Shown: positions 3,041 to 30,480 of the stretch, one piece after another
How the letters are laid out: the number at the start of each line of letters is the position of its first letter
Numbering within the stretch: the stretch's first letter is position 1
DNA from: Nitrosopumilus sp.
Lineage (GTDB): Archaea; Thermoproteota; Nitrososphaeria; Nitrososphaerales; Nitrosopumilaceae
Length of the DNA: 32,000 bases
Direction: 5' to 3'
Assembly: GCA_965238065.1 (NCBI GenBank)
Contig: OZ250170.1
Coordinates: 1,118,422 to 1,150,421 of the forward strand
Program-made: the position numbers and the translations under genes
Notes under the pieces: model-generated
The model's input: only the letters and a program-made list of their open reading frames with translations
Database searches by the model: none
Told to the model about the DNA's origin: nothing

Positions 3041-4436
3041 GGAAAGTAACTCAGATTACACATTCGGAAATATTTATCTTGGTTATTTCGAAAATAGTCT
3101 ATAACCATTTTTACAAAGAAACATGTGAGAATTTCAATTGATATTATCGGTTTGTAATTTTCCACACCTGACTCTGCTGAGATGGTTAAATTTGCAATAG
3201 TCCATGCGTTATACAAAACCATCGAATAGTAAAAATATAACAGTCTTGTGGATTGGTTTGGACTGGCAGTTCTTGGCCTGAATCTTTCAACACATGCATA
3301 ACCAGTTTCAATTCCTCAACGCATTTTTTAGTCTGCTGGAATGTTTTGTATGTTCTGTGAGATATCGCTTGGTGAAATGTTTGTTGCAAATGTATTGTAC
3401 TGGTTAATGATACCTGATTTTTTTGTATTTTTGTTTGGCAGAATCACAAGAGTAAATATCAGCATGTCCAGATGCTGATTTTATCGTGTATTTTGAAATT
3501 GATTCTCTTTCTCCATTGACGTACTGTACTATTGCCTTTTTAATCCCTAGTGTCTTTTTTGCAGGCATGTGAATTTTAGATTCATTCGTTTTATCACTGA
3601 AATTACTCCAGCAGTGAAAAACTCCCTGTCCACAGCACGAGGCTGATCTTGATGTTATTATTGATGCCATCTGATAGTAATTTACGCACAAAATCGGCAT
3701 TTGATTTGTTGTTATACGGTGTATAACAGCCTAATTGAGCCCTTGATTCTTTAGAGTACACATTGCATGGTGCAGTAGGCCTCAAAGAGATTGGTGCTAC
3801 TCTTGGATTTTGAATTGATCAGAAGAGGGTTTGTTGATTTGTTATATCGTGGTGTGAGGTGCTGTCAATTGCAACTATAACTGGTTGTTCAATACCCTCA
3901 TTTCTCTTAATTTTGATATGGTGCTATCCAATGATTGATGCAGTTTGAGTAGCATTGTTTTTTGCAATATCTTCCCAATACACTTTCTTAGCCATGAACC
4001 AGTTGGTGAACGATGTACTGATTCCATTGCCAGTTTTTTTAATCCTGATTCTGCACGAGTTTCCAATGCACAAGGACATTATGCAATTGTGTACATTAGC
4101 ACTGAAATCATGAGTTGGCTTTGGTAGAACATGGAAATGACAATATACGTAACTGTCTACAGTTTTGGAGTATTACGCACAAGATATGTCAAAACTGGTT
4201 ATTTTTTTGACACAAGCACGAAGCAACTTCAAAACTCTAGACAATCACCAATATACTGTTACATCATTTTAGAGATAATTCCAAATGCTTGTGATAATAT
4301 CACTCCTTGGTGTGTAAAGTCAGCAAACGACGTACGTCTCATGTTTGATAAATAACATACCAGTATCTAGCTTTTTCTATTTGAATGGTTTGATTCAGAT
4401 CTTAAAAAATTTCAGAGTAAATTTGAGTTACTTTCC
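3041..4436 (-). mobile_element. degraded IS (DDE-transposase-like wreck), family unassigned
   Basis: Imperfect TIRs: GGAAAGTAACTCAGATTAC (3041->) and GGAAAGTAACTCAAATTTAC (rc of ->4436). Only short broken minus-strand ORFs, with pieces such as EQPVIVAIDSTS. Carries a nested MITE-B. Confidence 0.45.
4149..4248 (+). repeat. MITE-B (100 bp) with 8-bp TSD CAATATAC
   Basis: TIRs are GTAACTGTCTACAGTTTT.. and ..AAAACTCTAGACAATCAC. CAATATAC occurs at 4141-4148 and 4249-4256. Confidence 0.85.
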
Positions 4437-4544: not shown

Positions 4545-4671
4545 TGGTCCCAAGCGAAGGAATTGAACCTTCGACAACCCGGTTTCTGTATGCCTGATAT
4601 GCTGTTATTTGGTCAGCCATCTAAAGCCAACAACTACAGCCGGAAGCTCTACCAGGCTGAGCTAGCTTGGG
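4545..4671 (-). tRNA. tRNA-Tyr (GTA) with ~50-nt intron after position 37, CCA encoded
   Basis: Reverse strand reads CCCAAGC-TA-GCTC-AGCCTGGTA-GAGC-T-TCCGG-CT-GTA-G-[50 nt]-A-CCGGG-TTGTC-GAAGG-TTCAATT-CCTTC-GCTTGGG-A-CCA. All four stems pair. Confidence 0.8.
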
Positions 4672-5459: not shown

Positions 5460-5518
5460 CAGTAGACAGGAGAGTGCAGTACTTGGTGGAATTGCATAAC
5501 CTCGATCTAGCTTTTTCT
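5460..5518 (+). repeat. MITE-E, first ~59 nt only
   Basis: CAGTAGACAGGAGAGTGCAGTACTTGGTGGAATTGCATAACCTCGATCTAGCTTTTTCT aligns with the left half of full MITE-E at 15589-15707. Confidence 0.65.
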
Positions 5519-5592
5519 GTATGCATCAATCTCTCCATCCAAATCAACTGGAATAGATATAGACGTTATAGGCATAAAACGTGCTATTTGCT
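5519..5592 (+). repeat. MITE-A variant (A'), truncated at the IS110 insertion point
   Basis: GTATGCATCAATCTCTCCATCCAAATCAACTGGAATAGATATAGACGTTATAGGCATAAAACGTGCTATTTGCT, followed directly by the IS110 left end AACTATGTGTGAAG. Confidence 0.7.
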
Positions 5593-6171
5593 AACTATGT
5601 GTGAAGAAAAAGGCAAGGAATTCAGATAGCATAAAGAATGAATCGGGTAGATCAAAGATCCATAAATCGCCTTCAAAGAGAACAATTCCAAAGAAACAGA
5701 TTAGGGATAAACCAGAAAATATCATGTATGTTGGAATTGTTCTGCACAAGAAATTTCATAAAGTGGCAGTCATGAACAACAAGGGAAAGATAACACGGAA
5801 TGAAAAAATAGAAAATACACAACAGGCAATCAGACAAGTGCTCTCAAAGATACCACTTTCTGCCAGTGTCGTCATGGAATCATCATCAGTTTGGTATAGA
5901 GTGTACAGATTCATAACAGATGCACTGGGATACAAGGTAGTGTTGTCAAATCCTTATCTTACAAAGGCAATTATTCCATCAAAGAAAAAGACAGACAAGA
6001 TTGATGCAGGGGTACTGGCAGATCTCTTACGTGGAGGATATATTGCAACATGTTTGTTCAGAGTGATAAAATTGTAAAGGAACGTCAGCTTGTACGGCAT
6101 AGAAGAAAGTTGATCCAATGGAGGACATCTGCAAAGAACTGTATTCATGGTATTCTGTTACAAAATGGAAT
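5593..6171 (+). pseudogene. IS110-family element, 5' 579 bp only; transposase frameshifted and truncated
   Basis: Near-identical to 11181-11759. ORFs 5601-6077 and 6050-6268 are joined by an indel near 6050. The catalytic GIDLH motif reads GIVLH. Homology ends at 6171. Confidence 0.85.
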
Positions 6172-6317
6172 CGCTCTTAATGTCAAGTTTTGTTGCTCAC
6201 TTTGTAGCTGTTTTTCAAACGAAAAAATCAACATGATGAGCCATACTAGTTTTTGTGAATGTCTTTGAATTACTAGCAATAATACTTGACGAGGCAAGGC
6301 ATGTGCAAGCCTGTTCA

Positions 6318-6829: not shown

Positions 6830-6925
6830 CTATACAATACTGTCTTGTGTATACGGCCCAGAGTTTTTTAACCCAACAAGTAGAGATTTTCATCGCTTCT
6901 GCTTTCTCTTTTGTGGTGATTTTCG

Positions 6926-7174
6926 TAACTGTCTACAGTTTTGAAGTTGCTTTGTGTTTGTGTCAAAAAAATAACCTGTTTGGATAATTGTCTAGAGTTT
7001 TGAAGTTCCTTCGTGTTTGTGTCAAAAAAATAACCTGTTTTGACATATCTTGTGCGGTATGTATCAACCCCTGCGCCTAAATCCGCTAGAATAGTCAAGA
7101 TGCTATAGGCATAAAACATGTTCTTTGCTTGATTCATACCTTGTGCGTAATACTTCAAAACTGTAAACAGTTAC
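6926..7174 (-). repeat. MITE-B '1.5-mer' (57-bp partial copy + full copy) carrying a nested MITE-A
   Basis: A partial copy (6926-~6982) is followed by a full reverse-oriented copy ending ..CTGTAAACAGTTAC at 7174. The full copy is interrupted at 7057-7139. Confidence 0.75.
7057..7139 (+). repeat. MITE-A (83 bp) with perfect 8-bp TSD CTTGTGCG
   Basis: GTATGTATCAACC...TTGATTCATAC. CTTGTGCG occurs at 7049-7056 and 7140-7147. Removing the element and one TSD restores the MITE-B sequence. Confidence 0.9.
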
Positions 7175-9967: not shown

Positions 9968-11110
9968 ATGTCTGATTATCAAAAAATCATCCCTATTGCA
10001 AACCAAATCCTAAAAAGATACGAACTGTGTGAGAACTGCCTGGGAAGGTTGTTCTCAAGACAATTACACCTTTCATCAAACAGGCTTCTTGGCAAAAGAC
10101 TGAAAAAAAATCCAGACTCTGCTCAAAAGTGCTATATCTGCAAGAATCTGTTTGAGAGACTAGATCGCTTTATAGGATTGATGCTTGATGCCTCAACAGA
10201 TTACTCATTTTCATCATTTAGTGTGGGAGTCATGATCAAACCGTCCATTATTGACAGGGATGATTACATTCGCTCAGAATACAGGCTGAAAGGGATAGAC
10301 GGCATAAAGACTGACGTATCAAGAGAGTTGAGAAAGTCATTCTCCAGAAAAACAAAAAAGACTGTAGATCTTTTAGACCCGGACGTGACTTTTACGATAA
10401 ACGCAAAGGATGAGTCCTGTCAGTTGCGTTCAAAATCAATATTCTTTTCTGGAAGATACCTCAAGACATCAAGAGGGATTCCACAAAAACAGTGGTCTTG
10501 TACGAATTGTTCAGGGAAAGGATGCCGAATGTGTAATTTCCACGGAATCTCAGAATTTGACAGTGTAGAGGGAATAATCTCGCAATTCTTTTTTAAAAAA
10601 TTTGGCGGAACTATTGCAAAATTTACATGGATTGGTAGTGAAGACAAATCCAGTCTGGTTTTGGGTACAGGAAGACCATTTTTTGTCAAGATTCAAAATC
10701 CCCTAAAAAGAGATTTGAGATTAACTTCGGTGACATTTGATTCTCTCAAGATGATTCATCCCAAGATCATACAAGAACCTCCAAAGAAACATCCCAAATT
10801 TAATTCATCAATAGAGATAAAAATTTCCACAGAGGATGAGGTTGATTTAAGAAATCTAAAAAAATTATCCAGCCTCCAAGAACAACCAATAGTAATTTAT
10901 GAAAAATCAGGAAAACGTTCTGAGAAGAGAGTGTTTTCTGCAAGATACAAAAAGAATTCCAGCAAGACCTTTACCCTGTTTATCAGAGTTCAAGGCGGCC
11001 TACCAGTAAAGAGATTTGTAACCAGTGATAATGTAGTGCCAGGAATTTCACAGATTCTCAACACACCATGTATTTGTCAAGAATTTGATTTTCTTGATAT
11101 CGAGGTATGA
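9968..11110 (+). CDS. pus10: tRNA pseudouridine synthase Pus10
   Basis: 380 aa. N-terminal CxxC pairs (CENC..CYIC), a second Zn cluster CTNCSGKGCRMC, and the catalytic region GSEDKSSLVLGTGRPFFV. Confidence 0.85.
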   Translation: MSDYQKIIPIANQILKRYELCENCLGRLFSRQLHLSSNRLLGKRLKKNPDSAQKCYICKNLFERLDRFIGLMLDASTDYSFSSFSVGVMIKPSIIDRDDYIRSEYRLKGIDGIKTDVSRELRKSFSRKTKKTVDLLDPDVTFTINAKDESCQLRSKSIFFSGRYLKTSRGIPQKQWSCTNCSGKGCRMCNFHGISEFDSVEGIISQFFFKKFGGTIAKFTWIGSEDKSSLVLGTGRPFFVKIQNPLKRDLRLTSVTFDSLKMIHPKIIQEPPKKHPKFNSSIEIKISTEDEVDLRNLKKLSSLQEQPIVIYEKSGKRSEKRVFSARYKKNSSKTFTLFIRVQGGLPVKRFVTSDNVVPGISQILNTPCICQEFDFLDIEV

Positions 11111-11188
11111 ATGGTTGTATCTACCTTTACGCCTAAACTGATTAGAATAGTTGGATTTACAGACATACATGTTATTTGCTAACTATAT

Positions 11189-12304
11189 GTGAAGAAAAAG
11201 GCAAGGAATTCAGATAGCATAAAGAATGAATCGGGTAGACCAAAGATCCGTAAATCGCCTTCAAAGAGAACAATTCCAAAGAAACAGATTAGGGATAAAG
11301 CAGAAAATATCATATATGTTGGAATTGATCTGCACAAGAAATTTCATCAAGTGGCCGTTATGAATAACAAGGGAAAGATAACACGAAATGAAAGAATAGA
11401 AAACACACAACAGGCAATCAGACAAATGTTCTCAAAGATACCTCTTTCTGCCAGTATCGTCATGGAATCATCATCAGTTTGGTATGGAGTGTACAGATTC
11501 ATGACAGATGTACTGGGATACAAGGTAGTGTTGTCAAATCCTTATCTTACAAAGGCAATTGCAGCATCAAAGAAAAAGACAGACAAGATTGATGCAGCGG
11601 TACTGGCAGATCTCTTACGTGGAGGATATATTGCAACATGCTTTGTTCCAAGTGATAAAATTGTAAAGGCACGTCAGCTTGTACGGTATAGAAGAAAGTT
11701 GATCCAATGGAGGACATCTGCAAAGAACTGTATTCATGGAATTCTGTTACAAAATGGAATAAAGATTCCTGGAGCAACATTCACAGGATTATACATGAAA
11801 AGACTCTGTGCCCTAGGGGATTACCGTATTGATGGCTTTATACGACAGATAGAATCACTAAATGATATGATTTCAGACATTAATGCAAAGATATATGCCA
11901 CAGTTAAAACCAATTCTGATGCAATGCTACTAAAGACAATACCTGGAGTAGGTGATTACACAGCACTGGTGATTGCATCTGAAATAGGAGGAATCTCTAG
12001 ATTTAATGACTCTCACAAGCTTGCAGCATATGCAGGAGTGGTCCCATCAGTTAGAAACTCTGCAGATACAATACATCATGGACGTATAACAAAGAAAGGC
12101 AGCATGACATTGAGATGGGTCTTGATTGAAGCTGCACATTCTCATGCATTACATGCACCAAATAGTAATATTACACAATTTTACAATCGTATCAAGAAAA
12201 AGAGAGGCAGTTCCAAAGCTGCAGTAGCTACAGGATCAAAAATGTTGCGAGTCATATACTGGATGTTAAAAGAGAAGAGAGAGTTTGTACAAAATTATAG
12301 TTAG
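11189..12304 (+). CDS. IS110-family (DEDD) transposase/recombinase
   Basis: 371 aa from GTG. Motifs: YVGIDLHK, VMESSSVWY, KTDKIDAAVLADL, C-terminal IPGVGDYTALVIASEIGGISRF and ITKKGSMTLRW. The canonical ATG seen in copy 5724-5726 is ATA here (11312-11314). Confidence 0.9.
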   Translation: MKKKARNSDSIKNESGRPKIRKSPSKRTIPKKQIRDKAENIIYVGIDLHKKFHQVAVMNNKGKITRNERIENTQQAIRQMFSKIPLSASIVMESSSVWYGVYRFMTDVLGYKVVLSNPYLTKAIAASKKKTDKIDAAVLADLLRGGYIATCFVPSDKIVKARQLVRYRRKLIQWRTSAKNCIHGILLQNGIKIPGATFTGLYMKRLCALGDYRIDGFIRQIESLNDMISDINAKIYATVKTNSDAMLLKTIPGVGDYTALVIASEIGGISRFNDSHKLAAYAGVVPSVRNSADTIHHGRITKKGSMTLRWVLIEAAHSHALHAPNSNITQFYNRIKKKRGSSKAAVATGSKMLRVIYWMLKEKREFVQNYS

Positions 12305-12511
12305 GACCATAGGTCGCGTTATGAATCATGAGGGTAAAGACCTCGCTTGCTAATTGCGGTTGATCCTAACTCAGGGATGAAGATAGCATTGAGGATCAAA
12401 ACCTCGTATAGATAATTATCCGCGTCCTGTATCATTTGAAACATATCTCTAGCGTATGCTATACTACACATGCTGAAAAAGGATAAAATGCTTAAAAAGG
12501 TCTCACATAGA
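12305..12511 (+). ncRNA. 3' non-coding tail of IS110 element; candidate guide (bridge/seek-like) RNA region
   Basis: No ORF. Hairpins at 12330-12344 (GAGG/CCTC) and 12360-12399 (TTGATCC/GGATCAA). TATGAATCA (12320-12328) is complementary to the target right flank TGATTCATA. Function is inferred only. Confidence 0.3.
12491..12498 (+). promoter_or_regulatory. TATA-like box near IS110 right end (candidate circle-junction promoter)
   Basis: CTTAAAAA lies 13 nt from the right end. After end-to-end joining it would lie at -29..-22 relative to GTG 11189. Confidence 0.3.
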
Positions 12512-12669
12512 TGATTCATACCTTTTTTCTCTTCAATTGCTCTAACAAATTAATCGGTTAATCATTGAAAATTAACCAAGTTTTTTTGACAAGATTTTGT
12601 TCGATATTGATCTCAAAAAAAAAATAGAACAAATTCATTCAGTATGATTGTAAAATAGATCAAATATTT

Positions 12670-13047
12670 GTATGTATCAACCTCTACGCCTAAATCCGCT
12701 AGAATAGTCAAGACGTTATAGGCATAAAACATGTTCTTTGCTTGATTCATACGATAAAACGATACCGGCGTGGTGATGATATTATGAAAAAGTTTGGAAT
12801 AAAGCTGAAAAACGCACGAAATGACCTGTTCACATTTGTGATGTGTCTTGGCGTGCCATCAACTAACAATGATGCGGAAAACTCTATTCGAAAATGTGTG
12901 ATGCTGAGAAATGTACGGGGTCAGCTGAAAAGTGAAAATAGGATGAAGATACTTTCAGTATTTCTAACATGTTTTGAAATATGAAGAATTAAAAATTAGA
13001 ACGGCCTAGTTGAGATAGGAAAATACATTTAGATGCATGATTCATAC
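12670..13047 (+). mobile_element. MITE-A copy fused to the last ~295 bp of an IS66-type element
   Basis: 12670-12752 is a full MITE-A. 12753-13047 matches the 3' end of IS66 copy 20324-20620 (rc), ending ..TAGATGCATGATTCATAC. Flanks AAATATTT and CTATTTGT do not match. Confidence 0.75.
12742..12984 (+). pseudogene. IS66-family transposase C-terminal fragment
   Basis: The 80-aa ORF is near-identical to the C-terminus of the 20339-21700 product (IKRYRRGDDIMKKFGIKLKNARNDLFTFVMC.GVPSTNNDAENSIRKCVM). Confidence 0.9.
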
Positions 13048-14091: not shown

Positions 14092-14190
14092 ATGCCAATA
14101 AGAAAGAAAGGTAAACACAAGAGACATGCTGATCAAAGGGCCGACACACGTAGAAGAAAAAAGGCTAAATCAGGTAAAGCCAGATCCTAA
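14092..14190 (+). CDS. possible 32-aa highly basic peptide
   Basis: MPIRKKGKHKRHADQRADTRRRKKAKSGKARS*. Below the ORF-track cutoff. The stop lies 2 nt before the IS110-delta left end. Confidence 0.25.
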   Translation: MPIRKKGKHKRHADQRADTRRRKKAKSGKARS

Positions 14191-14192
14191 CT

Positions 14193-14743
14193 AACTATAT
14201 GTGAATAAGGGGCAAGGAACTCGGATAGCATAGAGAATGAATCTGGCGAATCAGAGATCCGTAAATCGCCTTCAAAGAGAACAGGTTCAAAGAAGCAGAT
14301 TATGGATAAACCAAAAAATATCATATATTGGGTATTGATCTACACATGTAGCCTCTTCAAGTGGCAGTCATGAATAACAAGGAAAAGAGGACACAGAACA
14401 AAAAAAATAGAAAATACACAACTGTAGATAGGAGAGTGTTTCATTTGGAGCAAAAAATACTAATCAATCAAATAAATTAGATGGGAAAAGCTAGAATGAG
14501 ATTGTGTAATTCCATCAAATGTGGCACTTTTCTGTCTACTGCACAACAGACAATCGCAGTTATTCTCAATGATGTCACTTTCTACCAGTATCGTCATGTA
14601 ATCATCAGTTTGGTATGATATATTGGGGATCAAACCATGTATGGATAAATGTCCGCATCTTTTATCATTTGAAACATATTTCTAGTAAAAGATATACTCC
14701 ACATACTGAAAAAAGATGAAATACTTGAAAAGATTCACATGGA
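14193..14743 (+). mobile_element. IS110-type element, internally deleted and degenerate
   Basis: 5' ~230 bp (AACTATATGTGAATAAGG.. with stops) is joined to the last ~125 bp of the 3' tail (..GATTCACATGGA). Carries a nested MITE-E. Flanks are CCTAACT | TAAATCAACC, not MITE-A. Confidence 0.75.
14422..14540 (-). repeat. MITE-E (119 bp) nested in IS110-delta, 5-bp TSD CACAA
   Basis: CACAA occurs at 14417-14421 and 14541-14545. Removing the element restores the IS110 sequence ..AATACACAACAGACAATC... Confidence 0.8.
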
Positions 14744-14784
14744 TAAATCAACCTTTTTACATTCAAAATTCTCGATGAGGGACA

Positions 14785-15588: not shown

Positions 15589-15707
15589 CAGTAGATAAAA
15601 AGTGCCACATTTGATGGAATTACACAATCTCGTTCTAGCTTTTCCTATCTAATTTATTTGATTGATTGGTATTTTTTGCTCCAAATGAAACACTTTTCTA
15701 TTTACTG
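15589..15707 (+). repeat. MITE-E (119 bp)
   Basis: TIRs are CAGTAGATAAAAAGTG and, as reverse complement, CAGTAAATAGAAAAGTG. Inverted relative to copy 14422-14540. Confidence 0.75.
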
Positions 15708-15792: not shown

Positions 15793-15874
15793 GTATGAAT
15801 CAAGTAAAGAACATGTTTTATGCCTATAACGTCCAACTGTTCTAATGGATTTAGGCGTAGAGATTAATACATAC
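15793..15874 (-). repeat. MITE-A (82 bp) with perfect 8-bp TSD TAAAATTT
   Basis: GTATGAATCAAG...TTAATACATAC. TAAAATTT occurs at 15785-15792 and 15875-15882. Confidence 0.9.
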
Positions 15875-16511: not shown

Positions 16512-16722
16512 AGATTTAATATGTATTCATTACAGTGTGTCAAATATTACCCACATGGATTGGAATTGCATGTAGGGATTCTGCAAGAACGGTTTTGTAT
16601 GAATCAGCAAATAACGTAACTGTCTACAGTTTTAAAGTATAATTTTTCAAATATTCCAAAGCATAATCATGGAAATTCAATCCCCTTGTCCTGCATGTCT
16701 CCTTTATACTCATCAATATCTT

Positions 16723-16915
16723 GTGAGAATCAGCTCCGACCTTTGAGCGATGACCGTTTGTGAGATTTCTAATTATGACATTTGGTCGTATTGCCCTCTG
16801 CAGTATTGTTGTGAGAATCAGCTCCGACCTTTGAGCGATGACCGTTTGTGAGATTTCTAATTATGACATTTGGTCGTATTGCCCTCTGCAGTATTGTTGT
16901 GAGAATCAGTTCCAG
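16723..16915. repeat. 88-bp tandem duplication (2.2 copies) inside the transposase wreck
   Basis: Units start at 16723, 16811 and 16899. The first two are identical. Confidence 0.9.
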
Positions 16916-18891: not shown

Positions 18892-19762
18892 ATCAAAAGC
18901 ATTCAATGCCGCAGGATAACTAACGTCTGCTTCCTTGGCTCCACATCTTGCGCTTGTTCCAAGATCAAACAGTTTGATTAAAACCAACCATTTTGTAAAA
19001 TCAATGCGGATGATATCAAACCATGTTCCGCTAAATGGCCTGTAATCTGTTTTGCAGTATTTGCATCATAGTTTTCCTCTTGAGATTATATAGTAATTTT
19101 TGGAATCACATCTAGTACAATAAATTGTATTTTTCTTTTGGAATTGTTTACACACGAATTCCAATGCAGTTGACTTGTTGTCGATTATTTTGGATAACTC
19201 GATTAGGTTGATTATTTTCTCAATAATTATGTAAAACTAGTTGGCGGTAATAGGTTTACAATCACCACAATAGATAATGGTTGGCGTGGTTTAGTGGATC
19301 ACGCATAATCTCTTATGAATAATCTGAGTTGTTTGTTTTCTCTTTTTAATTCTGAATTAATTTTGTCAGACTTGCTCATATCAAAAGATGGATGAGGTTA
19401 CTCAAATCTTTTGGTTTAATTTTGTTGATCTAGACGTGAAGGTTGATTCATACTCAGTTTGTATAATCATCGTGCAATCAGGCTTTGCAATTACTGCATC
19501 GACAACTGATTATATGAAAATGTTTTTTGATGCCAATACAACAAACACAACTAAAATCCGTCTTTGCTTAAATGTAAAGTACGATACAGCAGTAACGCAC
19601 GGCGTCAATTCCATCAGATATGAAGAATATCGGTCTGCCACAAGTCTACCAATCTTTTGGAATGTAAGATACAAGTTACTTTTCCAGTTACTTTTTAGGA
19701 TATACCTCAAAGAGTGTAATCACATATTGATGTTGAATGAAAATTTAACCATTTAGCAAGAC

Positions 19763-20323: not shown

Positions 20324-21776
20324 GTATGAATCAAGCATCTAAATGTATTTTCCCATCTCAACTAGGCTGTTCTGATTCCTGATTCTCCATGTTTCAAAAC
20401 ATGTCAGAAATACTGAAAGCATCTTCATTCCCTTTTCACTTTTCAGCTGACCCCGGACATTTCTCTGCATCACACATTTTCGAATAGAGTTTTCCGCATC
20501 ATTGTTAGTTGATGGCACGCCAGGACACATCACAAATGTAAACAGGTCATTTCGTGCGTTTTTCAGCTTTATTCCAAACTTTTTCATAATATCATCACCA
20601 CGCCGGTATCGTTTTATTATGTGATCAATCTGCTCAAACAGATAATCCGTATATTTGATCCGTTCTATCTTTTTGTGTTTTGATTTTGAATATTTCCTAG
20701 CATTATCCAATATTTTTGAGAATTCCTTGTGCAAAATGACAGCTGATAGTTTTTCTGATTTATCTGCCACATCTCTTGACTCTCTTTGCAGATGTGCAGT
20801 GCATCTCTGTCTCTTGTTTTTGGTAAATATTGCAACATATGATTTCCATCCATCAGAAACTACAATTCCTCTAAAATCAATCCAGTATTTTTTTATAACA
20901 ACTGCACCTCTGCTAAAATCTAAAACATAGTACGCTTCGGTGTTGGTTCTTGCAATCCACGCCCATCCATGTTTACCCTCAATTGGATATCCAGTCTCAT
21001 CAAATCCTACAATCTCTGATTTGTTGATTTCGTGCCCAATTTTATCATAAAATGGCTCTAAAAGCGTCTGACCTGTCTGCAAAATTGACCGTACTGTCGT
21101 ATTGCTGATTTGTAATCCATATTGTTCTTGCAATGATTCTCTGATTGTGTTGTATGGCATTCTTTTTGAAAACATGCTCACTACACTTTTGATTACAGTG
21201 GCGTCAAATTGTCCTCTAGGTGGAAGTTTACCATCATTTTCAAATGTCTTTTTGCATGATTTACAGGTATATTTGTGTAAAATATGCTCAGTTACGTTAT
21301 ACTCTTGTGGTGGTGGAATACCCACCATGTTGCGTTTTTTTGTGTCAATCTGAGTAATGTCTGTGCTTTTACATTTTGGACAAGCTGTTGAATCGTGATG
21401 TGTAGTTTTTTGTGGTATGAATGTCTGTGTTTTCCCCTTGTGTCCAAAGACACCTCCTCGGTTTGACTCGGTATCTTTTTTCTCGTTCTTGTCCTTTTCC
21501 ACTTGCAAGAGCTTGCGAGATGGTGGCGTATGTGGATTATCATAATAGAATAATTTATGTTTCAATTCATCATTTGATTTTGTTAAACTGTTAATTGTTC
21601 TTGTCAGACTTTTATTGTGTTTTTTTAGATCAACTATGACTAATCTGAGTTGTTTGTTTTCTCGTCTTAATTCTGAATCAATTTTGTGAGTCTTGCTCAT
21701 ATCAGAAGGTGGATGAGGTTACTTTTAGATCTTTTGGTTTAATTTTATTGATCTAGGCGTGAAGGTTGATTCATAC
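20324..21776 (-). mobile_element. IS66-family insertion sequence (single-ORF type), intact, perfect 8-bp TSD AAATCTTA
   Basis: Termini are GTATGAATCAAGC.. (20324->) and ..GGTTGATTCATAC (->21776). AAATCTTA occurs at 20316-20323 and 21777-21784. Confidence 0.9.
20339..21700 (-). CDS. IS66-family DDE transposase
   Basis: 453 aa. N-terminal coiled coil, Zn finger CPKCKS..CKSCKK, then GFDETGYPIEGKHGWAWI, VVSDGWKSY and CTAHLQRE. Confidence 0.9.
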   Translation of the reverse strand: MSKTHKIDSELRRENKQLRLVIVDLKKHNKSLTRTINSLTKSNDELKHKLFYYDNPHTPPSRKLLQVEKDKNEKKDTESNRGGVFGHKGKTQTFIPQKTTHHDSTACPKCKSTDITQIDTKKRNMVGIPPPQEYNVTEHILHKYTCKSCKKTFENDGKLPPRGQFDATVIKSVVSMFSKRMPYNTIRESLQEQYGLQISNTTVRSILQTGQTLLEPFYDKIGHEINKSEIVGFDETGYPIEGKHGWAWIARTNTEAYYVLDFSRGAVVIKKYWIDFRGIVVSDGWKSYVAIFTKNKRQRCTAHLQRESRDVADKSEKLSAVILHKEFSKILDNARKYSKSKHKKIERIKYTDYLFEQIDHIIKRYRRGDDIMKKFGIKLKNARNDLFTFVMCPGVPSTNNDAENSIRKCVMQRNVRGQLKSEKGMKMLSVFLTCFETWRIRNQNSLVEMGKYI

Positions 21777-21798
21777 AAATCTTAAACAAAGGAACAAG

Positions 21799-21896
21799 GT
21801 AGCGGTTTACAGTTTTAAAGTATTACGCACAAGATATGTCAAAACTGGTTATTTTTTTGACACAAACACAAAGAAACTTTAAAACTTGACAATTAC
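21799..21896 (+). repeat. MITE-B (98 bp), TSD GGAACAA[G/T]
   Basis: GGAACAAG at 21791-21798 and GGAACAAT at 21897-21904. Confidence 0.8.
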
Positions 21897-21911: not shown

Positions 21912-22060
21912 GTAGTATCAACGTAAGAGTTTAGGTTGAGCACGAATTTTAGATGTTCTAGTCAGGAGACCTAAACTCTTACGTATCAACCGCAATATCT
22001 CAATCAAATGGAATAGTCAGACATTATAGGCATAAAACATGTTATTTGCCTGATTCATAC
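21912..22060 (+). repeat. MITE-A copy carrying a nested MITE-C
   Basis: GTAGTATCAAC[MITE-C]GTATCAACCGCAATATCTC...CATGTTATTTGCCTGATTCATAC. Confidence 0.75.
21923..21982. repeat. MITE-C (60 bp) with perfect 8-bp TSD GTATCAAC
   Basis: GTATCAAC occurs at 21915-21922 and 21983-21990, inside the MITE-A terminus. Confidence 0.9.
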
Positions 22061-24015: not shown

Positions 24016-24264
24016 GTGAATATCCGAATTATCCAATCCCTGTCTATCCAAGTTCAGATGCTTGCCTTTAAAGTTTGCATCAAAATATACGATCAAAATG
24101 AGACATTGGAATAAATTTCCAACAGTTTTTTGATCTTTAAGGATATTTGCAAACATCAAGTTTCCGGGATTTTTTTATCAGTATTTTTCTGATGGGATAG
24201 TTTGTGTTGTAATTGTTACAGTACTGTTTTGCAAATTCGACATGATAAAAAAACGCCAAGCATG

Positions 24265-24364
24265 GTAACTGTTTACCATTTTAAAGTATTACGCACAAGA
24301 TATGTCAAAACCGGTTATTTTTTTGACACAAACACGAAGGAACTTTAAAACTCTAGACGATTAC
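24265..24364 (+). repeat. MITE-B (100 bp), TSD CAAG[C/T]ATG
   Basis: CAAGCATG at 24257-24264 and CAAGTATG at 24365-24372. Confidence 0.8.
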
Positions 24365-24451
24365 CAAGTATGCTTTCAGAGAACGGATGGTGGCAATCAC
24401 AAAGAACGAGAGGTTAGAATCCAAGAGATATCCAAAATCTTGTCAGAATCA

Positions 24452-26642: not shown

Positions 26643-26724
26643 GTATGAATCAGCAAAGAACATGTTTTATGCCTATAACATCTTGACTATTCTAGCGGAT
26701 TTAGGCGTAGAGGTTGATACATAC
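26643..26724 (-). repeat. MITE-A (82 bp) with perfect 8-bp TSD ATGAAATT
   Basis: ATGAAATT occurs at 26635-26642 and 26725-26732. The first copy contains the TGA stop (26636-26638) of the upstream gene. Confidence 0.9.
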
Positions 26725-27158: not shown

Positions 27159-27244
27159 GATTTACGACACGTAATGAAAAATCTAAAGACTTGGGTGTTG
27201 TAAAGTTATCGATAGCTAGACATAACATGAAATATGGATCTTTT

Positions 27245-27376
27245 GTAATTGTCTAGAGTTTTGTAGTTCCTTCGTGTTTGTGTCAAAAAAATAACCTGTT
27301 TTGGTAATTGTCTAGAGTTTTGTAGTTCCTTCGTGTTTGTGTCAAAAAAATAACCTGTTTTGACATATCTTGTGCG
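27245..27376 (-). repeat. MITE-B '1.5-mer', truncated after CTTGTGCG
   Basis: Same partial+full arrangement as 6926-7056. The second unit starts at 27304. The element ends at ..GACATATCTTGTGCG (27376). Confidence 0.75.
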
Positions 27377-27464
27377 GACACTAACGTTATGAGGTGGTAA
27401 ATGATGATCTTTTCTGGATTGAAAGAATTAACCTAAAATTTAATAAATTCAAAAAAGAATTATG

Positions 27465-27563
27465 GTAACTGTCTACAGTTTTAAAGTATTACGCACAAGA
27501 TATATCAAAACAGGTTATTTTTTCGACACAAACACGAAGGAACTTTAAAACTCTAGACAATTA
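27465..27563 (+). repeat. MITE-B copy
   Basis: GTAACTGTCTACAGTTTTAAAGTATTACGCACAAGATATATC...CTCTAGACAATTAT. No clear TSD. Confidence 0.7.
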
Positions 27564-27569
27564 TCAAAA

Positions 27570-27975
27570 AAGGTCGTCATACGATACATCATAACCAGAC
27601 GATACTGCAAGCATTGTAAAAAACAGATATCTGCAAGGGTACCTGACGCACTGCCAAATGAGCGATTTGGAATCAGAGTGATGATACTAATCGTAATACT
27701 AGAGTTTATGCGTAATTGACTAAATCACGTCAACCATCTGAATTCCTTGCATTTTTCTTCACATATAGTTAGCAAATAGCACGTTTTATGCCTTAATGTC
27801 TATATCTGCTCTAGTTGATTTGGATGGAGAGGTTGGTGCGTCAAAAAAAGATAGAACGAGGTATGCAATTCCATCAAGTACCGCACTTTCCCATCTACTG
27901 TGTTTTGAAACATGGAGAATGAATAATCAGAGCAGTCTAGTTGGGATGGCAAAATACATTTGGAGGCTTGATTCA
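27570..27975. mobile_element. mosaic of IS/MITE fragments
   Basis: Components: 27570-27699, IS66-type-2 Zn-finger fragment (RRYCKHCKKQISARVPDALPNERFG). 27700-27735, MITE-D end. 27738-27770, IS110 left end (rc). 27771-27838, MITE-A' (rc). 27841-27900, MITE-E half (rc). 27901-27975, IS66 right-end fragment (CFETWRMNNQSSLVGMAKYI). Confidence 0.7.
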
Positions 27976-27977
27976 CC

Positions 27978-28532
27978 CTAGTCTGTTATTTCAAATGTAT
28001 GTTTTGAAAAAAATGATATTGGTATGGCAGTGTTACTAAAATCATTTGGAGGCACACTATATTCTACAGAAATCTCATAGATATCCCCTAGTTGAGACAG
28101 ATCATCTTTTGGAATTAGGAATTTATCACTATATTCGGTTCCTGGTTCGAATGGAAATATCGCATCTGACACTAATCCACCAAAATGATTGCCAGATGTG
28201 AGCGAAACAATACTCATACCACCAATATTACGAAGCACGACAAGCACATCACCCGAATTTCGTACCGTTATATGTACGATATCACCTGGATGATATTTGT
28301 ATTTATCTGTAGTTATGTCAATCTGATGAACAGGAGGTAAATCAGGCTTGCTGACCACTGTAATTTGAGGATCATTATCTTGTATTGTTACTACATCAGT
28401 TCCACTAGATAAATCAGGCTTGCTGACCACTGGAATTTGAGGTAAAGAAATTACTAGCAACAAAACCAGTACAATTGATGCAGAAATGAAAATTAAACTT
28501 TTAGAATTTAATTTAATCAATCTTTCCTCCAT
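27978..28532 (-). CDS. secreted/membrane-anchored protein with short internal repeat
   Basis: 184 aa. N-terminal hydrophobic anchor LIFISASIVLVLLLVI. Repeat P[QI][IP][TV]VVSKPDL occurs twice. Overlaps the upstream subtilase fragment by 20 nt. Confidence 0.6.
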   Translation of the reverse strand: MEERLIKLNSKSLIFISASIVLVLLLVISLPQIPVVSKPDLSSGTDVVTIQDNDPQITVVSKPDLPPVHQIDITTDKYKYHPGDIVHITVRNSGDVLVVLRNIGGMSIVSLTSGNHFGGLVSDAIFPFEPGTEYSDKFLIPKDDLSQLGDIYEISVEYSVPPNDFSNTAIPISFFSKHTFEITD

Positions 28533-29529
28533 TTTTAATTAGCAATTTTCCACCATCTTTAATCAAGACATGTTTGTTTATAAAGTCAACATCTAATAAA
28601 AGACCGTTTGGGATGGTTAGTGATGAGTCATTATTGATTATTACATTTCCGTTTGTTTTACTATCTGTATCTAGAATGCAATCATTATCTATAATCCAAT
28701 CGTACGGTGTAGAATCAAAAGGCATACATTCAATCCCCTGGCTAGGAGTTATTGGTTTGTTGCTTGAGATAACAAATGTGATAAATGTGTCAGGGGGACT
28801 AGAATTAGGTTCAGCTGTAACAATTAATTTATAGTCAGTTATTCGTTGTACAGGAAATGTAATAAATTCAGTATTTTGAACGGTTGAATTACTGATTATA
28901 ATAGGGTCACCGTTTTCAAATCTTAATTCCAATGTTAAATCTCCTTTAATAGACTGAACAGGATTATGAATTGTACCATTAGGATTAATAAACCAAGTAA
29001 GGAAAACTTTTGTATGTTTACCATATTGATCAGAAAGCGCATACTCTTTTGTAACTGTGCCATCACTGTTAATTACATCTTGGATTAGTTTATCTCCATC
29101 AGATACAAATTCCAAAGACTGTTCTACATTTAATCTTCCAAATCCCCAATCATGGAGTTGTTCAGATTCAGATTTTCTTGCTTCATACGAGTTTGCAGCA
29201 AAAAAATATCCATCAGGTCCTTGCCAATCAGCACCTGTAATTAATGCACTTTTAACACCCAACGCAGTCAATTCTGGGTGTGCTTTTAATAATAATGCAG
29301 ATGCTCCAGACACATGTGGTGCTGCAAAACTAGTTCCATTAACTTGGTAATAACCTCCCAGTTTACTTGCAGTAATAACATTAAAGCCAGGTGCTACAAG
29401 GTCAGGTTTAATACGTCCATCATCAAGAGGGCCTCTACTACTGAAAGGCGCAATTGTGTCATCAGTTAAATTTGAAATTGTATTGGGATTTAATGCTCCA
29501 ACTGTAATCACGTTATAACCACTGCCTGG
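28513..29529 (-). pseudogene. subtilisin-like serine protease, C-terminal part only
   Basis: Contains the GTSFAAPHVSGASALLLKAHPEL catalytic-Ser motif. The frame stays open upstream (..PGSGYNVITVGA) until the MITE-F terminus at 29531. No Asp/His half found in the window. Confidence 0.75.
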
Positions 29530-29641: not shown

Positions 29642-29648
29642 CTCTTAC

Positions 29649-29811
29649 GTCAAAACTGGTTATTTTTTCGACACAAACACGAACGAACTTTAAAACTCTA
29701 GACAATTACATTCCTTGCCTTTTTCTTCACATATAGTTAGCAAATAACATGTTTTATGCCTATAACGTCTTGACTAATCTAGTCGATTCAGGCGTGAAGG
29801 TTGATACATAC
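29649..29811 (-). repeat. fragment mosaic: MITE-B right part, IS110 left end, MITE-A left part
   Basis: Components: 29649-29709, MITE-B (..GACAATTAC). 29710-29738, rc of AACTATATGTGAAGAAAAAGGCAAGGAAT. 29739-29811, rc of GTATGTATCAACCTTCACGCC...CATGTTATTTGCT. Confidence 0.75.
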
Positions 29812-29896
29812 CATAAAAATTATGATGGTTCATCATATTGATTTTTTCGTTTGAAAAACAGTTACAAAGTGAGCAGCAAGACTTGACATTAAGAGG

Positions 29897-30480
29897 GATG
29901 CAGAAACATCAATCATATTGCCAGCCGATATACATGTAGAAAATGCAGATACAAGTTTGATAATTTTACTGGAACGTATCTTGCCAAAATCAGAATTCCT
30001 CTAAACACATTACGCATCTTTTCTACTTGTTCTCACTTGGAGTTCCAGCATACAGAATACGATTCTATGCAAGAACAAGCCTCAAAACAAGAGCACACAT
30101 TTAGAATATTTCGAGAAGCAATCTACGATTCATCAATGGTTAATCTCAGACTAGCTGGCAAGCTGGAACTTGATGAAGCCATGTTTGGCGGACATCATAA
30201 GGGAAAACGTGGATAGGGTGCCGAAGGCAAGACATTGGTGTTTGGAATATACAAGAGAAGCGGACATGTAATGACGTTTCCAGTACCTGGCAGAAAATAG
30301 GATACACTTGAAATTAATTAAAAAGCACACAAGAAAAGGCTCGCTGTACTATACAGATGACTATACATATATGCTTCTTTGGTAATGAGAGGTAAACACA
30401 AAGTTGTATCTCATGAAATTAACAGTATGTCAGAGGCGATGCTCACATCAACGGAATGGAGCTTGCAATGGATGGATAGT
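29897..30480 (+). pseudogene. second IS1595-like transposase, degenerate
   Basis: Reads CRNINHIASRYTCRKCRYKFDNFTGTYLAKIRIPL..LELDEAMFGGHHKGKRG*GAEGKTLVFGIYKRSGHVMTFPVPGRK*.. with several in-frame stops. Confidence 0.65.

Follow-up and report, generated by a model that had tools for sequence, protein, structure and literature searches.

Insertion into the terminal repeat of another transposon, always at the same position and in the same orientation and without target duplication, is known from IS4321/IS5075, whose hosts are enterobacterial and whose targets are of the Tn3 family. In the 32,000-nucleotide stretch of Nitrosopumilus DNA analysed here (the window), an element with the same habit shares with IS4321/IS5075 a DEDD transposase and subterminal inverted repeats, but its host belongs to the Nitrosopumilaceae and its targets are an IS66-family terminus and an 83-bp MITE. 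A sequence-only reading of the window had drawn the analogy to the targeting of Tn21-family ends by IS4321/IS5075, and by the pattern of insertion the analogy is apt. Short multicopy repeats also serve as safe landing sites for the REP-targeting IS110 elements ISPa11, ISPpu9/ISPpu10 and IS621 (PMC12288879, PMC11187229), although these enter a REP hairpin whereas the window element enters a transposon terminus. Relatives of the window element in the CBDFGF genome sit in a palindromic repeat, GGTTCTGGTAAATTTTGGTGATC.

The seekRNA-guided IS1111-family elements ISEc11, ISPa11, ISKpn4 and ISPst6 (Siddiquee et al., 2024, PMC11187229) resemble the window element in the non-coding region downstream of tnp, the order of the guides and the overlap of the guides at the crossover. 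Furthermore, they have 7/3-nt extensions, repeated targets (REP, attC) and guides that are reprogrammed among close relatives. They differ in transposase length (330-350 aa versus 371 aa here, including a 43-aa N-terminal extension), in a Ser/Thr-Gly motif that reads Ser-Ala here, and in the subterminal inverted repeat, which in the IS1111 group is typically 11-13 bp (PMC11187229) or 7-17 bp (PMC11208160) versus 6-8 bp here; moreover, the RNA of the window element is predicted, and any promoter would be of the archaeal type. IS621 with its bridge RNA (Durrant et al., 2024, PMC11208160; Hiraizumi et al., 2024, PMC11208158) has in common with the window element a two-loop RNA, a donor loop matching the element ends, and aligned DEDD and Ser residues. 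However, IS621 encodes its RNA in the left end, with the guides in reversed order, its core is the dinucleotide CT rather than the single shared T seen here, and the two proteins are distant, with a partial alignment at E = 1.9e-11.

Architecture of the element and its transposase

The full-length element occupies positions 11180-12511 on the forward strand (1332 bp with the boundary T, TAACTAT...CATAGA). We set its ends by comparing occupied with empty MITE-A copies and by end-to-end alignment with relatives of about 73% identity. A single T flanks every copy on both sides, and the limits can equally be written as 11181-12512 with this T placed on the other side. In the relatives with readable empty sites the T is single, and we therefore assign it to the element: four empty GGTTGATACATAC sites compare with occupied GGTTGAT^IS^TACATAC (carets mark junctions), and five empty GGTTCTGGTAAATTTTGG sites with occupied ...CTGGT^IS^TAAATTTT. 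With the T so assigned from these empty sites, the extensions are 7 nt on the left and 3 nt on the right.

The left end (11180-11194, +; end sequence TAACTATRTGTGAAG) consists of the extension TAACTAT followed by the subterminal inverted repeat ATGTGAAG, and the right end (12491-12511, +; end sequence TCTCACATAGA) consists of an A/T-rich, TATA-like octamer CTTAAAAA (12491-12498), the subterminal repeat TCTCACAT and the extension AGA. Such asymmetric extensions, TAACTAT on the left and AGA or GGA on the right, agree with the 7-or-6/3 bp of the IS1111 group. The inverted repeat, ATGTGAAT/ATTCACAT, measures 8 bp in relatives, and the window copy retains 6 perfect bp; among the lengths published for the group, this is a short repeat. 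Non-coding DNA amounts to 207 nt (12305-12511) 3' of the gene versus 8-9 nt 5' of the start codon, which is again the IS1111-group layout as described in PMC11187229, our source for the architecture of the group. The GTG start codon (11189) lies inside the left end, and the junction creates an in-frame TAA at 11180-11182. A promoter for tnp borne by MITE-A, made up of TTATAGG and CATAAAAC upstream of the junction, was considered and rejected, its spacing fitting poorly.

The transposase/recombinase gene (11189-12304, +) encodes 371 aa: after the basic 43-aa extension at the N-terminus comes a DEDD RuvC-like domain, then a Tnp domain in which a Ser is conserved. The protein matches PF01548 (99.3 bits, 2.4e-28), PF02371 (83.4 bits, 1.5e-23) and, over profile positions 1-342 of 343, NCBIfam NF033542, 'IS110 family RNA-guided transposase' (250.9 bits, cutoff 140), matches that bear out the proposed membership of the IS110 family. 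Its motifs GIDLHK, MESSS, KTDKIDA and VRNSA align with D11, E60, D102/D105 and S241 of IS621, whose catalytic roles are described in PMC11208158, so that the catalytic residues are conserved. The catalytic Ser is followed by Ala where Gly is usual, and the C-terminal motif reads GVVPSVRNSA versus GL-P----S(T)G in the IS1111 group. Judged by its sequence, the element is an archaeal (Nitrosopumilus-like), IS1111-type member of the IS110 family. We call copies of this type W-type and examined five of them; the source genome holds at least 21 transposase variants, and the 26-nt left end found no match in JGI metagenomes.

Repeated insertion at one position in MITE-A

Four left ends had been reported to abut the same MITE-A sequence, and we could confirm all of them. 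The junction TTTGCT^AACTAT(A/G)TGTGAAG is present at 5593 and 11181 and, as reverse complement, at 27770 and 29738, and the 20-mer TTTGCTAACTATRTGTGAAG occurs exactly four times (5587-5606 and 11175-11194, +; 27757-27776 and 29725-29744, -) versus not once in 100 dinucleotide-preserving shuffles. The sole W-type right end in the window (...TCTCACATAGA, ending at 12511) is followed, as the sequence-only reading had it, by the remainder of the MITE-A terminus. The MITE-A copy hosting the full element is a diverged one, whose left part lies at 11106-11179 (+) and whose terminal 10 nt (TGATTCATAC, the tip of the 83-bp MITE-A) have been split off by the element to 12512-12521 (+). A further W-type copy, on contig L055, which was located via an exact match to transposase variant P0122, occupies the same site in yet another MITE-A. 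All five W-type copies have the same position and orientation in MITE-A and share only a T with it, which is the insertion mode of the IS110 family; the right junctions differ by one T (...AGA^TGATTC in the window versus ...AGA^TTGATTC on L055). The claim that no target duplication is present thus holds in the IS1111 sense, with the refinement that one T stands on both sides of every copy and is assigned to the element.

Among the other copies, a 3'-truncated one (5593-6171, +), 94% identical to the full element in an alignment spanning 5579-6171, lies in MITE-A' (5518-5592). A 35-nt left-end stub (27736-27770, -) adjoining MITE-A' (27771-27843) is a duplicate of the same ancestral event, and a 29-nt left-end stub (29710-29738, -) adjoining MITE-A (29739-29811) and cut off by another repeat of about 100 bp is an independent one. 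The left end AACTATRTGTGAA recurs at 14193 in a fifth window copy (14193-14743, +), a degenerate member of a second subfamily that aligns at about 80% identity in three blocks (14191-14758) and has the right end CATGGA, as in relatives. This copy has lost its guide loops to an internal deletion and has received a foreign insert of 118 bp (14424-14541). It sits outside MITE-A, at CCTAACT^...^TAAATCAACC; the window holds no empty counterpart of its site. Part of its left flank, GATCCTAACT, is also found at 12362-12371, an observation that prompted the idea of a guide-RNA-gene remnant in that flank (GGTAAAGCC..GATCCTAACT); the idea was rejected on a local alignment score of 23 versus 22.3 +/- 3.1 for shuffles.

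Empty MITE-A copies, reading TTTGC(T/TT/CT)GATTCATAC, were confirmed at the five places where they had been listed. They lie at 7057-7139 (+; TT-type site TTTGCTTGATTCATAC, 8-bp TSD CTTGTGCG), at 12670-12752 (+; TT-type, adjoining an IS66 3' fragment at 12754-13047), at 15793-15874 (-; TTTACTTGATTCATAC, TSD AAATTTTA) and at 26643-26724 (-; single-T site TTTGCTGATTCATAC, TSD AATTTCAT), along with a diverged MITE-A-like copy at 21980-22060 (+; TTTGCCTGATTCATAC). To these we add an isolated right-tip remnant with an empty single-T site at 16597-16611 (-). MITE-A has the characters of an IS66-derived MITE, being short (83 bp), non-coding and present in at least nine copies in the window and two on L055, with 8-bp TSDs at 7057, 15793, 26643 and on L055. 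An intact IS66-family element of 1453 bp (20324-21776, -; PF03050/PF13005, NF033517), flanked by an 8-bp TSD AAATCTTA, has the termini GTATGAATCAAGC.../...GGTTGATTCATAC and a single ORF without tnpA/tnpB accessory genes. Its transposase scores 138.8 bits against PF03050 and 223.4 bits against NF033517 (cutoff 180), in line with the IS66 family. MITE-A descends from this element, which also supplied the targeted terminal repeat, and the earlier identification of the target as an IS66-type terminal repeat is supported by the matches of MITE-A to the IS66 ends (23/27 over the 5' ~27 nt and 14/14 over the 3' 14 nt).

Identical junctions would be uninformative on target choice if a single ancestral MITE-A::IS insertion had spread by segmental duplication or recombination, and the region is rich in rearranged repeats (for example, 6170-6257 matches the reverse complement of 29812-29899). 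Such copying does account for one pair: 5593 and 27770 share both the MITE (89%) and the outer flank (78%) and, as the sequence-only reading had counted them, represent one event. For every other pair of occupied sites, identity is 64-84% in the MITE bodies and, in the outer flanks, 52-66%, no higher than between unrelated sequences, whereas the IS left ends are 97-100% identical. Extended identical flanks, which had been named as the observation that would speak for duplication if found at all occupied sites, were therefore seen for the 5593/27770 pair only. Because identity jumps to 97-100% exactly at the junction, up from 64-84% in the MITE and about 55% in the outer flank, the insertions are, as far as sequence comparison goes, independent, three of them in the window (at least three had been proposed) and a fourth on L055. 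The L055 copy, moreover, has its own 8-bp MITE TSD (CAAAATTT), and the predicted guide RNA independently points to this site. Spread by duplication is already largely refuted and, in our estimate, extremely improbable.

A composite MITE-A::IS of about 1.4 kb with IS66-type terminal repeats might, alternatively, have been moved in trans by the IS66 transposase from a single insertion. The IS66 transposase gene (20339-21700) is apparently intact, and the composite on L055 has a flanking 8-bp direct repeat typical of IS66-type insertion, but prior insertion of the MITE would leave such a repeat just as well. A unit moving as a whole should show equal divergence throughout, whereas divergence is 16-36% in the MITE parts and 0-3% in the IS parts, and the occupied MITEs are of different subtypes (A, A' and the diverged form). 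We give this scenario only a minute chance compared with repeated insertion of the element into MITE-A.

A predicted guide RNA 3' of the transposase gene

The 207-nt region 3' of the gene contains two predicted loops that resemble those of a seekRNA or bridge RNA. The putative target-binding loop (12314-12359, +) was predicted from alignments, guide-flank covariation and a consensus fold. Its closing stem pairs 12314-12320 with 12352-12359 and encloses a right-target guide AUGAAUCA (12321-12328), complementary to TGATTCAT, a hairpin (12329-12345) and a left-target guide CUUGCU (12346-12351), which matches the left flank and is followed by AAUU, the counterpart of left-end AACU. In the window element, the right guide matches its flank at 8/8 positions and the left guide at 5/6. 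The top-strand complement lies 5' of the bottom-strand match and the two overlap at the T, the order of the IS1111 group as far as a predicted RNA can be classed, and the strand logic is that of RTG/LTG of IS621.

The putative donor-binding loop (12379-12436, +), predicted from end covariation and the consensus fold, comprises GAUAGCAU (12382-12389), partly complementary to left-end CTAT, a hairpin (12390-12406) and UAUAGAU (12407-12413), identical to right-end ATAGA plus the core T. Two positions of this loop change along with the ends of the element. Where the window has ATAGAT and the right end CATAGA, relatives have ATGGAT and CATGGA; likewise, GAUAGC goes with the left end AACTAT, and GAAUGGU (in L034/L046) with AACCAT. 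Pairing between the putative right-donor guide and the left end extends over just 4-5 nt.

The correspondence between guides and flanks was examined in 35 related copies at 32 distinct sites from other Nitrosopumilus genomes, which fall into 16 guide classes. The 8 nt after GUCGCGUU correspond to the reverse complement of the right flank, with 103/128 matches to the own flank, a value reached by 0/20000 permutations, and the 6 nt after CCUCG correspond to the left flank, with 53/66 matches, reached by 1/20000. Metagenomic relatives obey the same rule. Some relatives sit at sites that match only 5/8 or 3/6 guide positions, and the register of the right guide relative to the shared T is -1, 0 or +1 among lineages.

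The structure was taken from the alignment-based fold and not from single-sequence folding, whose minimum-free-energy fold does not reach significance (z = -1.79) and departs from the consensus. In the consensus two-loop fold, 97.5% of cells are paired versus 39-45% with the partners slid; five pairs have compensatory changes. Since most stems do not vary, covariation lends the fold itself little support. Rfam returned a single tRNA at the gathering threshold over the whole window and nothing at E <= 10 on 12250-12560.

The recombinase could, in principle, recognise the IS66-type terminal repeat by protein alone, the matching 3' segments being coincidental or captured target. The guide RNA of this organism is predicted from sequence, and the unusual basic N-terminal extension of 43 aa could bind DNA. 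However, proteins 70-98% identical enter unrelated sequences while the two RNA segments change in step, over 16 classes, and the same arrangement is experimentally essential and reprogrammable in IS1111/IS110 elements (PMC11187229, PMC11208160). Recognition by protein alone is very unlikely on these grounds. That the 3' non-coding region encodes a guide RNA specifying the insertion site is, by contrast, highly probable from the co-variation of guides and flanks.

Proposed mechanism and its meaning

The sequence presents identical junctions, independent events, the protein family and guide-like segments that co-vary with the flanks, and an RNA-guided, IS1111-type element targeting MITE-A/IS66 ends is in all likelihood the best explanation of the locus as a whole. 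By analogy with the published mechanism of the family, an RNA from the 207-nt region would be made, bound by the DEDD/Ser recombinase and direct it to its target. One internal loop would carry the two short guides, and a second would match the element's own ends (ATAGA-T on the right, CTAT on the left). Recombination at the shared T between the excised circle (right end - T - left end; predicted junction ...TCTCACATAGA-T-AACTATATGTG...) and TTTGC-T-(T)GATTCATAC would then follow, by the strand-exchange chemistry of the family, in one orientation and without true duplication. The same site would be hit repeatedly because MITE-A and IS66 ends are multicopy.

The TATA-like octamer CTTAAAAA in the right end could conceivably act as a promoter. 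Three guide solutions are seen, namely the window type (TTTGC-T-(T)GATTCATAC), the OZ252243 type (GGTTGA-T-ACATAC; guides UGGUAUGU and GUUGAU) and a metagenomic variant, L059. A bolder reading, which we regard as unlikely, is that the clade has repeatedly re-aimed its guides at co-resident IS66 termini, its members acting as hyperparasites that split and disable the terminal repeat. Linked to this reading is a possible archaeal junction promoter, whose TATA-like box, 21 nt from the right end, may start a leaderless tnp mRNA at the left-end GTG only when the ends are joined. If true, the re-aiming would amount to a natural RNA-guided interaction of transposon against transposon in IS-swamped archaeal genomes.

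The sequence-only reading knew of no archaeal or IS66-directed counterpart. Our literature searches likewise found none, but archaeal IS1111-type elements and the targeting of repeats and transposon ends are already known (PMC11187229), and the novelty is therefore modest: the window element is a clear archaeal case of a known mechanism and not a new mechanism. It would bring ammonia-oxidising archaea into the range of seekRNA/bridge-RNA-guided transposition, whose workings have so far been established in bacteria, with guide and genomic targets readable side by side in one window. Its relatives form a natural reprogramming series of 16 guide classes with recombinases 44-98% identical, which is useful as evidence for programmability and can supply recombinase engineering with archaeal orthologues. 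The highest IS content on record for archaea, about 15%, is that of a related MAG (PMC13343696). The use of one mobile element's terminal repeat by another as a multicopy landing pad helps explain the nested element 'graveyards' in IS-laden Nitrosopumilus genomes.

Repeated insertion into one position of MITE-A

Five copies of the IS110-family element (the IS) emerged from self-comparison of the window. The one at about 11181-12511 is full, and that at 5593-6171 (94% identical) is truncated at its 3' end. Two stubs of the left end lie on the minus strand, at 27736-27770 and 29710-29738. The fifth copy, at 14193-14743, is degenerate: it is about 80% identical, has an internal deletion and carries 118 bp of foreign sequence. 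The sequence-only reading had placed four left ends at the same MITE sequence, and this was borne out by the 20-mer TTTGCTAACTATRTGTGAAG, which spans the junction four times and is absent from shuffled sequence. The sole W-type right end, that of the full copy's subfamily, indeed precedes TGATTCATAC, the remainder of the MITE.

The targeted MITE-A is 83 bp long with the termini GTATGTATCAACC...TTGCTTGATTCATAC. Its first ~27 nt match the 5' end of the IS66-family element at 20324-21776 (1453 bp; NF033517, 223 bits; target duplication AAATCTTA) at 23 of 27 positions, and its last 14 nt are identical to the 3' end. Judged by these ends, MITE-A is a deletion derivative of this element, so the label "IS66-derived MITE" was correct. 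Empty copies start at 7057, 12670, 15793 (minus strand), 26643 (minus strand) and 21980, several of them bearing 8-bp target duplications, and an empty tip remnant lies at 16597-16611 (minus strand); seven empty sites were seen in all. Insertion of the IS separates the MITE tip (10-11 bp) from its body, which probably immobilises the copy.

The occupied sites are not copies of a single duplicated insertion, as their flanks show. Between occupied sites, the IS is 97-100% identical over its initial 29 nt, whereas the MITE bodies share 64-84% and the 77 nt past them 52-66%, no more than unrelated AT-rich sequence would, so that identity changes abruptly at the junction. The sole pair resembling each other in both the MITE (89%) and the outer flank (78%) is 5593/27770; these two represent one event, as had already been suspected. 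Exact-protein look-up led to contig L055 (ENA ERZ25766962), whose source is the same organism or a very close one; it carries a 98%-identical full copy within another MITE-A with its own 8-bp duplication, CAAAATTT. Counting L055, the flank comparisons give four independent insertions at one position and in one orientation, in keeping with the earlier estimate of at least three.

An 88-bp segment (6170-6257) follows the truncated copy. It recurs in reverse complement, 89% identical, at 29812-29899, where the arrangement is opposite and the segment stands ahead of the MITE-A of site 29738, which points to recombination among IS copies or to a further small mobile element.

Transposase and element boundaries

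The DNA of the window is archaeal; the genes flanking the IS encode Pus10 with an archaeal THUMP domain, SRP54 and diphthamide synthase, and the nearest relatives of the transposase all come from Nitrosopumilus or Nitrosopumilaceae MAGs. The transposase ORF (11189-12304, 371 aa, GTG start) contains PF01548 and PF02371; against the NCBIfam model NF033542, "IS110 family RNA-guided transposase", it reaches 250.9 bits, where the cutoff is 140. The catalytic residues of IS621, whose roles have been described (PMC11208158), align with D, E, D, D and Ser of this protein. A Lys/Arg-rich extension of 43 aa (11189-11317) precedes the DEDD domain, and matches to the family profiles begin only at residue 43-44; the 371-aa relatives have this extension, and many homologues of 330-350 aa do not. 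The GTG start falls within the left inverted repeat, and the boundary T together with AA creates an in-frame TAA at the left end.

In this clade, a T ends every left flank and begins every right flank. In the lineage represented by genome OZ252243, four empty sites read GGTTGATACATAC as opposed to the occupied GGTTGAT-IS-TACATAC, and in other relatives five empty sites read GGTTCTGGTAAATTTTGG as opposed to ...CTGGT-IS-TAAATTTT. Because the T is single in these readable empty sites, one boundary T is part of the element. With one T so assigned, the extensions outside the inverted repeats are TAACTAT on the left (7 nt) and AGA/GGA on the right (3 nt), exactly the asymmetric 7/3 extensions characteristic of the IS1111 family (PMC11187229). 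The full copy in the window points to a target with a single T, TTTGCTGATTCATAC, which is found empty at 26643-26724, at 16597-16611 and in L055, and the L055 insertion (...AGA followed by TTGATTCATAC) implies the commoner TT form. The use of both forms indicates that the right-side pairing tolerates an offset of one base. The right guide-to-crossover register differs by one base among lineages.

With 8 nt ahead of the start codon, 207 nt past the stop and inverted repeats in subterminal position, the element has the layout of the IS1111 group. Four of the five IS1111 features testable by sequence were found in the IS; the exception is the C-terminal motif, in which Ala and not Gly comes after Ser.

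A predicted guide RNA matching the insertion site

Scanning genome contigs yielded 54 loci with relatives of about 73% nucleotide identity, which have conserved ends (AACTATATGTGAAT...ATTCACATGGA) and different flanks. Alignment of their 3' regions reveals two hypervariable stretches, the putative guides, set in a conserved scaffold. The right flank has its reverse complement in the 8 nt that follow GUCGCGUU. The left flank recurs unchanged in the 6 nt that follow the hairpin UGAGGG...CCUCG, and next to these stands AACU, with which the left end begins. In the window, the right guide AUGAAUCA (12321-12328) complements TGATTCAT at 8/8 positions, and the left guide CUUGCU (12346-12351) agrees with TTTGCT at 5/6. 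We examined 35 copies at 32 distinct sites in 16 guide classes, shuffling flanks among classes: the right guides matched their own flanks at 103 of 128 positions (reached in 0 of 20000 shuffles) and the left guides at 53 of 66 (1 of 20000). Metagenomic relatives obey the same rule, and the alignments show guide segments and flanks changing together across relatives. The strand logic is that of LTG and RTG in IS621, where the left guide addresses the bottom strand and the right guide the top strand with an overlap at the crossover; the order, top-strand complement first, is that of IS1111-type seekRNAs.

RNAalifold predicted a two-loop structure with a UGAGG...CCUCG hairpin in each loop and 97.5% of cells paired, as opposed to 39-45% with the partners slid. 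Five pairs show compensatory changes; as most stems are invariant, the covariation support is modest. The second loop matches the ends of the IS itself: UAUAGAU (window) versus UAUGGAU (relatives) tracks the right end CATAGA versus CATGGA, and GAUAGC versus GAAUGGU (loci L034 and L046) tracks the left end AACTAT versus AACCAT. All 16 aligned relatives have a TATA-like A/T-rich octamer at a constant distance of 21 nt from the right end, CTTAAAAA in the window (within 12491-12511) and TATAAAAA or TTTATTA(A/G) in relatives. In the joined circle, its centre would lie ~26.5 nt from the GTG start. This spacing may, speculatively, reflect archaeal promoter geometry for a leaderless mRNA, an archaeal equivalent of the circle-junction promoter.

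The sequences themselves show where the element joins its targets, that the events were independent, which family the protein belongs to and that guides and flanks co-vary. By analogy with the family mechanism established by experiment (PMC11187229, PMC11208160, PMC11208158), the 3' region would be transcribed together with tnp and processed, and the recombinase would bind the RNA. The IS would be excised as a circle with a joined right end-T-left end, the target loop would pair with both strands of TTTGC-T-(T)GATTCAT, and serine-mediated strand exchange at the shared T would lead to integration in one orientation.

Neighbouring repeats and recurrent targets of the clade

The fifth copy (14193-14743) belongs to an older subfamily and lies outside MITE-A, between CCTAACT and TAAATCAACC; its guide loops are deleted. 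Its 118-bp insert (14424-14541), 93% identical to 15589-15705 (reverse complement) near the MITE-A at 15793, is one more small repeat family. The 10-mer GATCCTAACT directly left of this copy (14184-14192) equals 12362-12371, the 5' half of the inter-loop hairpin of the predicted guide RNA, without significant wider similarity around the match; the junction also reads AACT/AACT.

A second abundant repeat of ~100 bp occurs at 4149-4251, 6920-7056, 21795-21896, 24262-24367, 27241-27376, 27462-27574 and 29646-29709, and in L055 at 4264-4361; at 6926-7040 and 27241-27362 it contains tandem units of 59 bp. This repeat often adjoins MITE-A (7056/7057) and cuts off an IS stub at 29709/29710. An IS66 3' fragment (12754-13047, 94% identical to 20324-20617) starts one base past the empty MITE-A at 12670-12752, and a 5'-end fragment lies at 19314-19453; the region of these fragments is a nest of decayed mobile elements. 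Near-perfect tandem repeats lie at 16721-16913 (88 bp, 2.2 copies, 99% matches) and 1869-2013 (70 bp, 2.1 copies, 94% matches). The match of the ORF at 28513-29511 (minus strand) to the subtilase domain is confined to the C-terminal part (profile positions 174-274 of 288), and the ORF is probably a gene truncated by the adjoining MITE/IS insertions. An Rfam tRNA match at 4548-4671 (minus strand; 47.4 bits, full model 1-71) spreads over 124 nt and is probably an archaeal tRNA gene with an intron; ARAGORN reported no tRNA over the whole window.

Archaeal IS1111 relatives and natural guide reprogramming have already been reported; our literature search turned up neither a described IS110-family element of Nitrosopumilus nor one directed at IS66. 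In functional terms the case is that of IS4321/IS5075, IS1111-group elements within the terminal repeat of another transposon. The sequence-only reading had drawn this analogy, which holds at the functional level, with the seekRNA/bridge-RNA mechanism as its likely explanation. In OZ252243, a related lineage has GUUGAU and (complement) ACATAC(C/A)A as its guides. Its insertion site, GGTTGA-T-ACATAC, lies 6-7 nt from the tip of an IS66-type element (53% identical transposase), in the other of the two terminal repeats. A similar guide occurs in L059, a variant from a marine metagenome. For IS copies of the CBDFGF lineage, the preferred landing site in related Nitrosopumilus genomes is a REP-like palindrome, GGTTCTGGTAAATTTTGGTGATC(N)GATCACC... 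(L006 9860, L007 11467 on the minus strand, L010 13960, L019 6439, L028 909). Multicopy repeats, and IS66 termini especially, are therefore recurrent targets of the clade.
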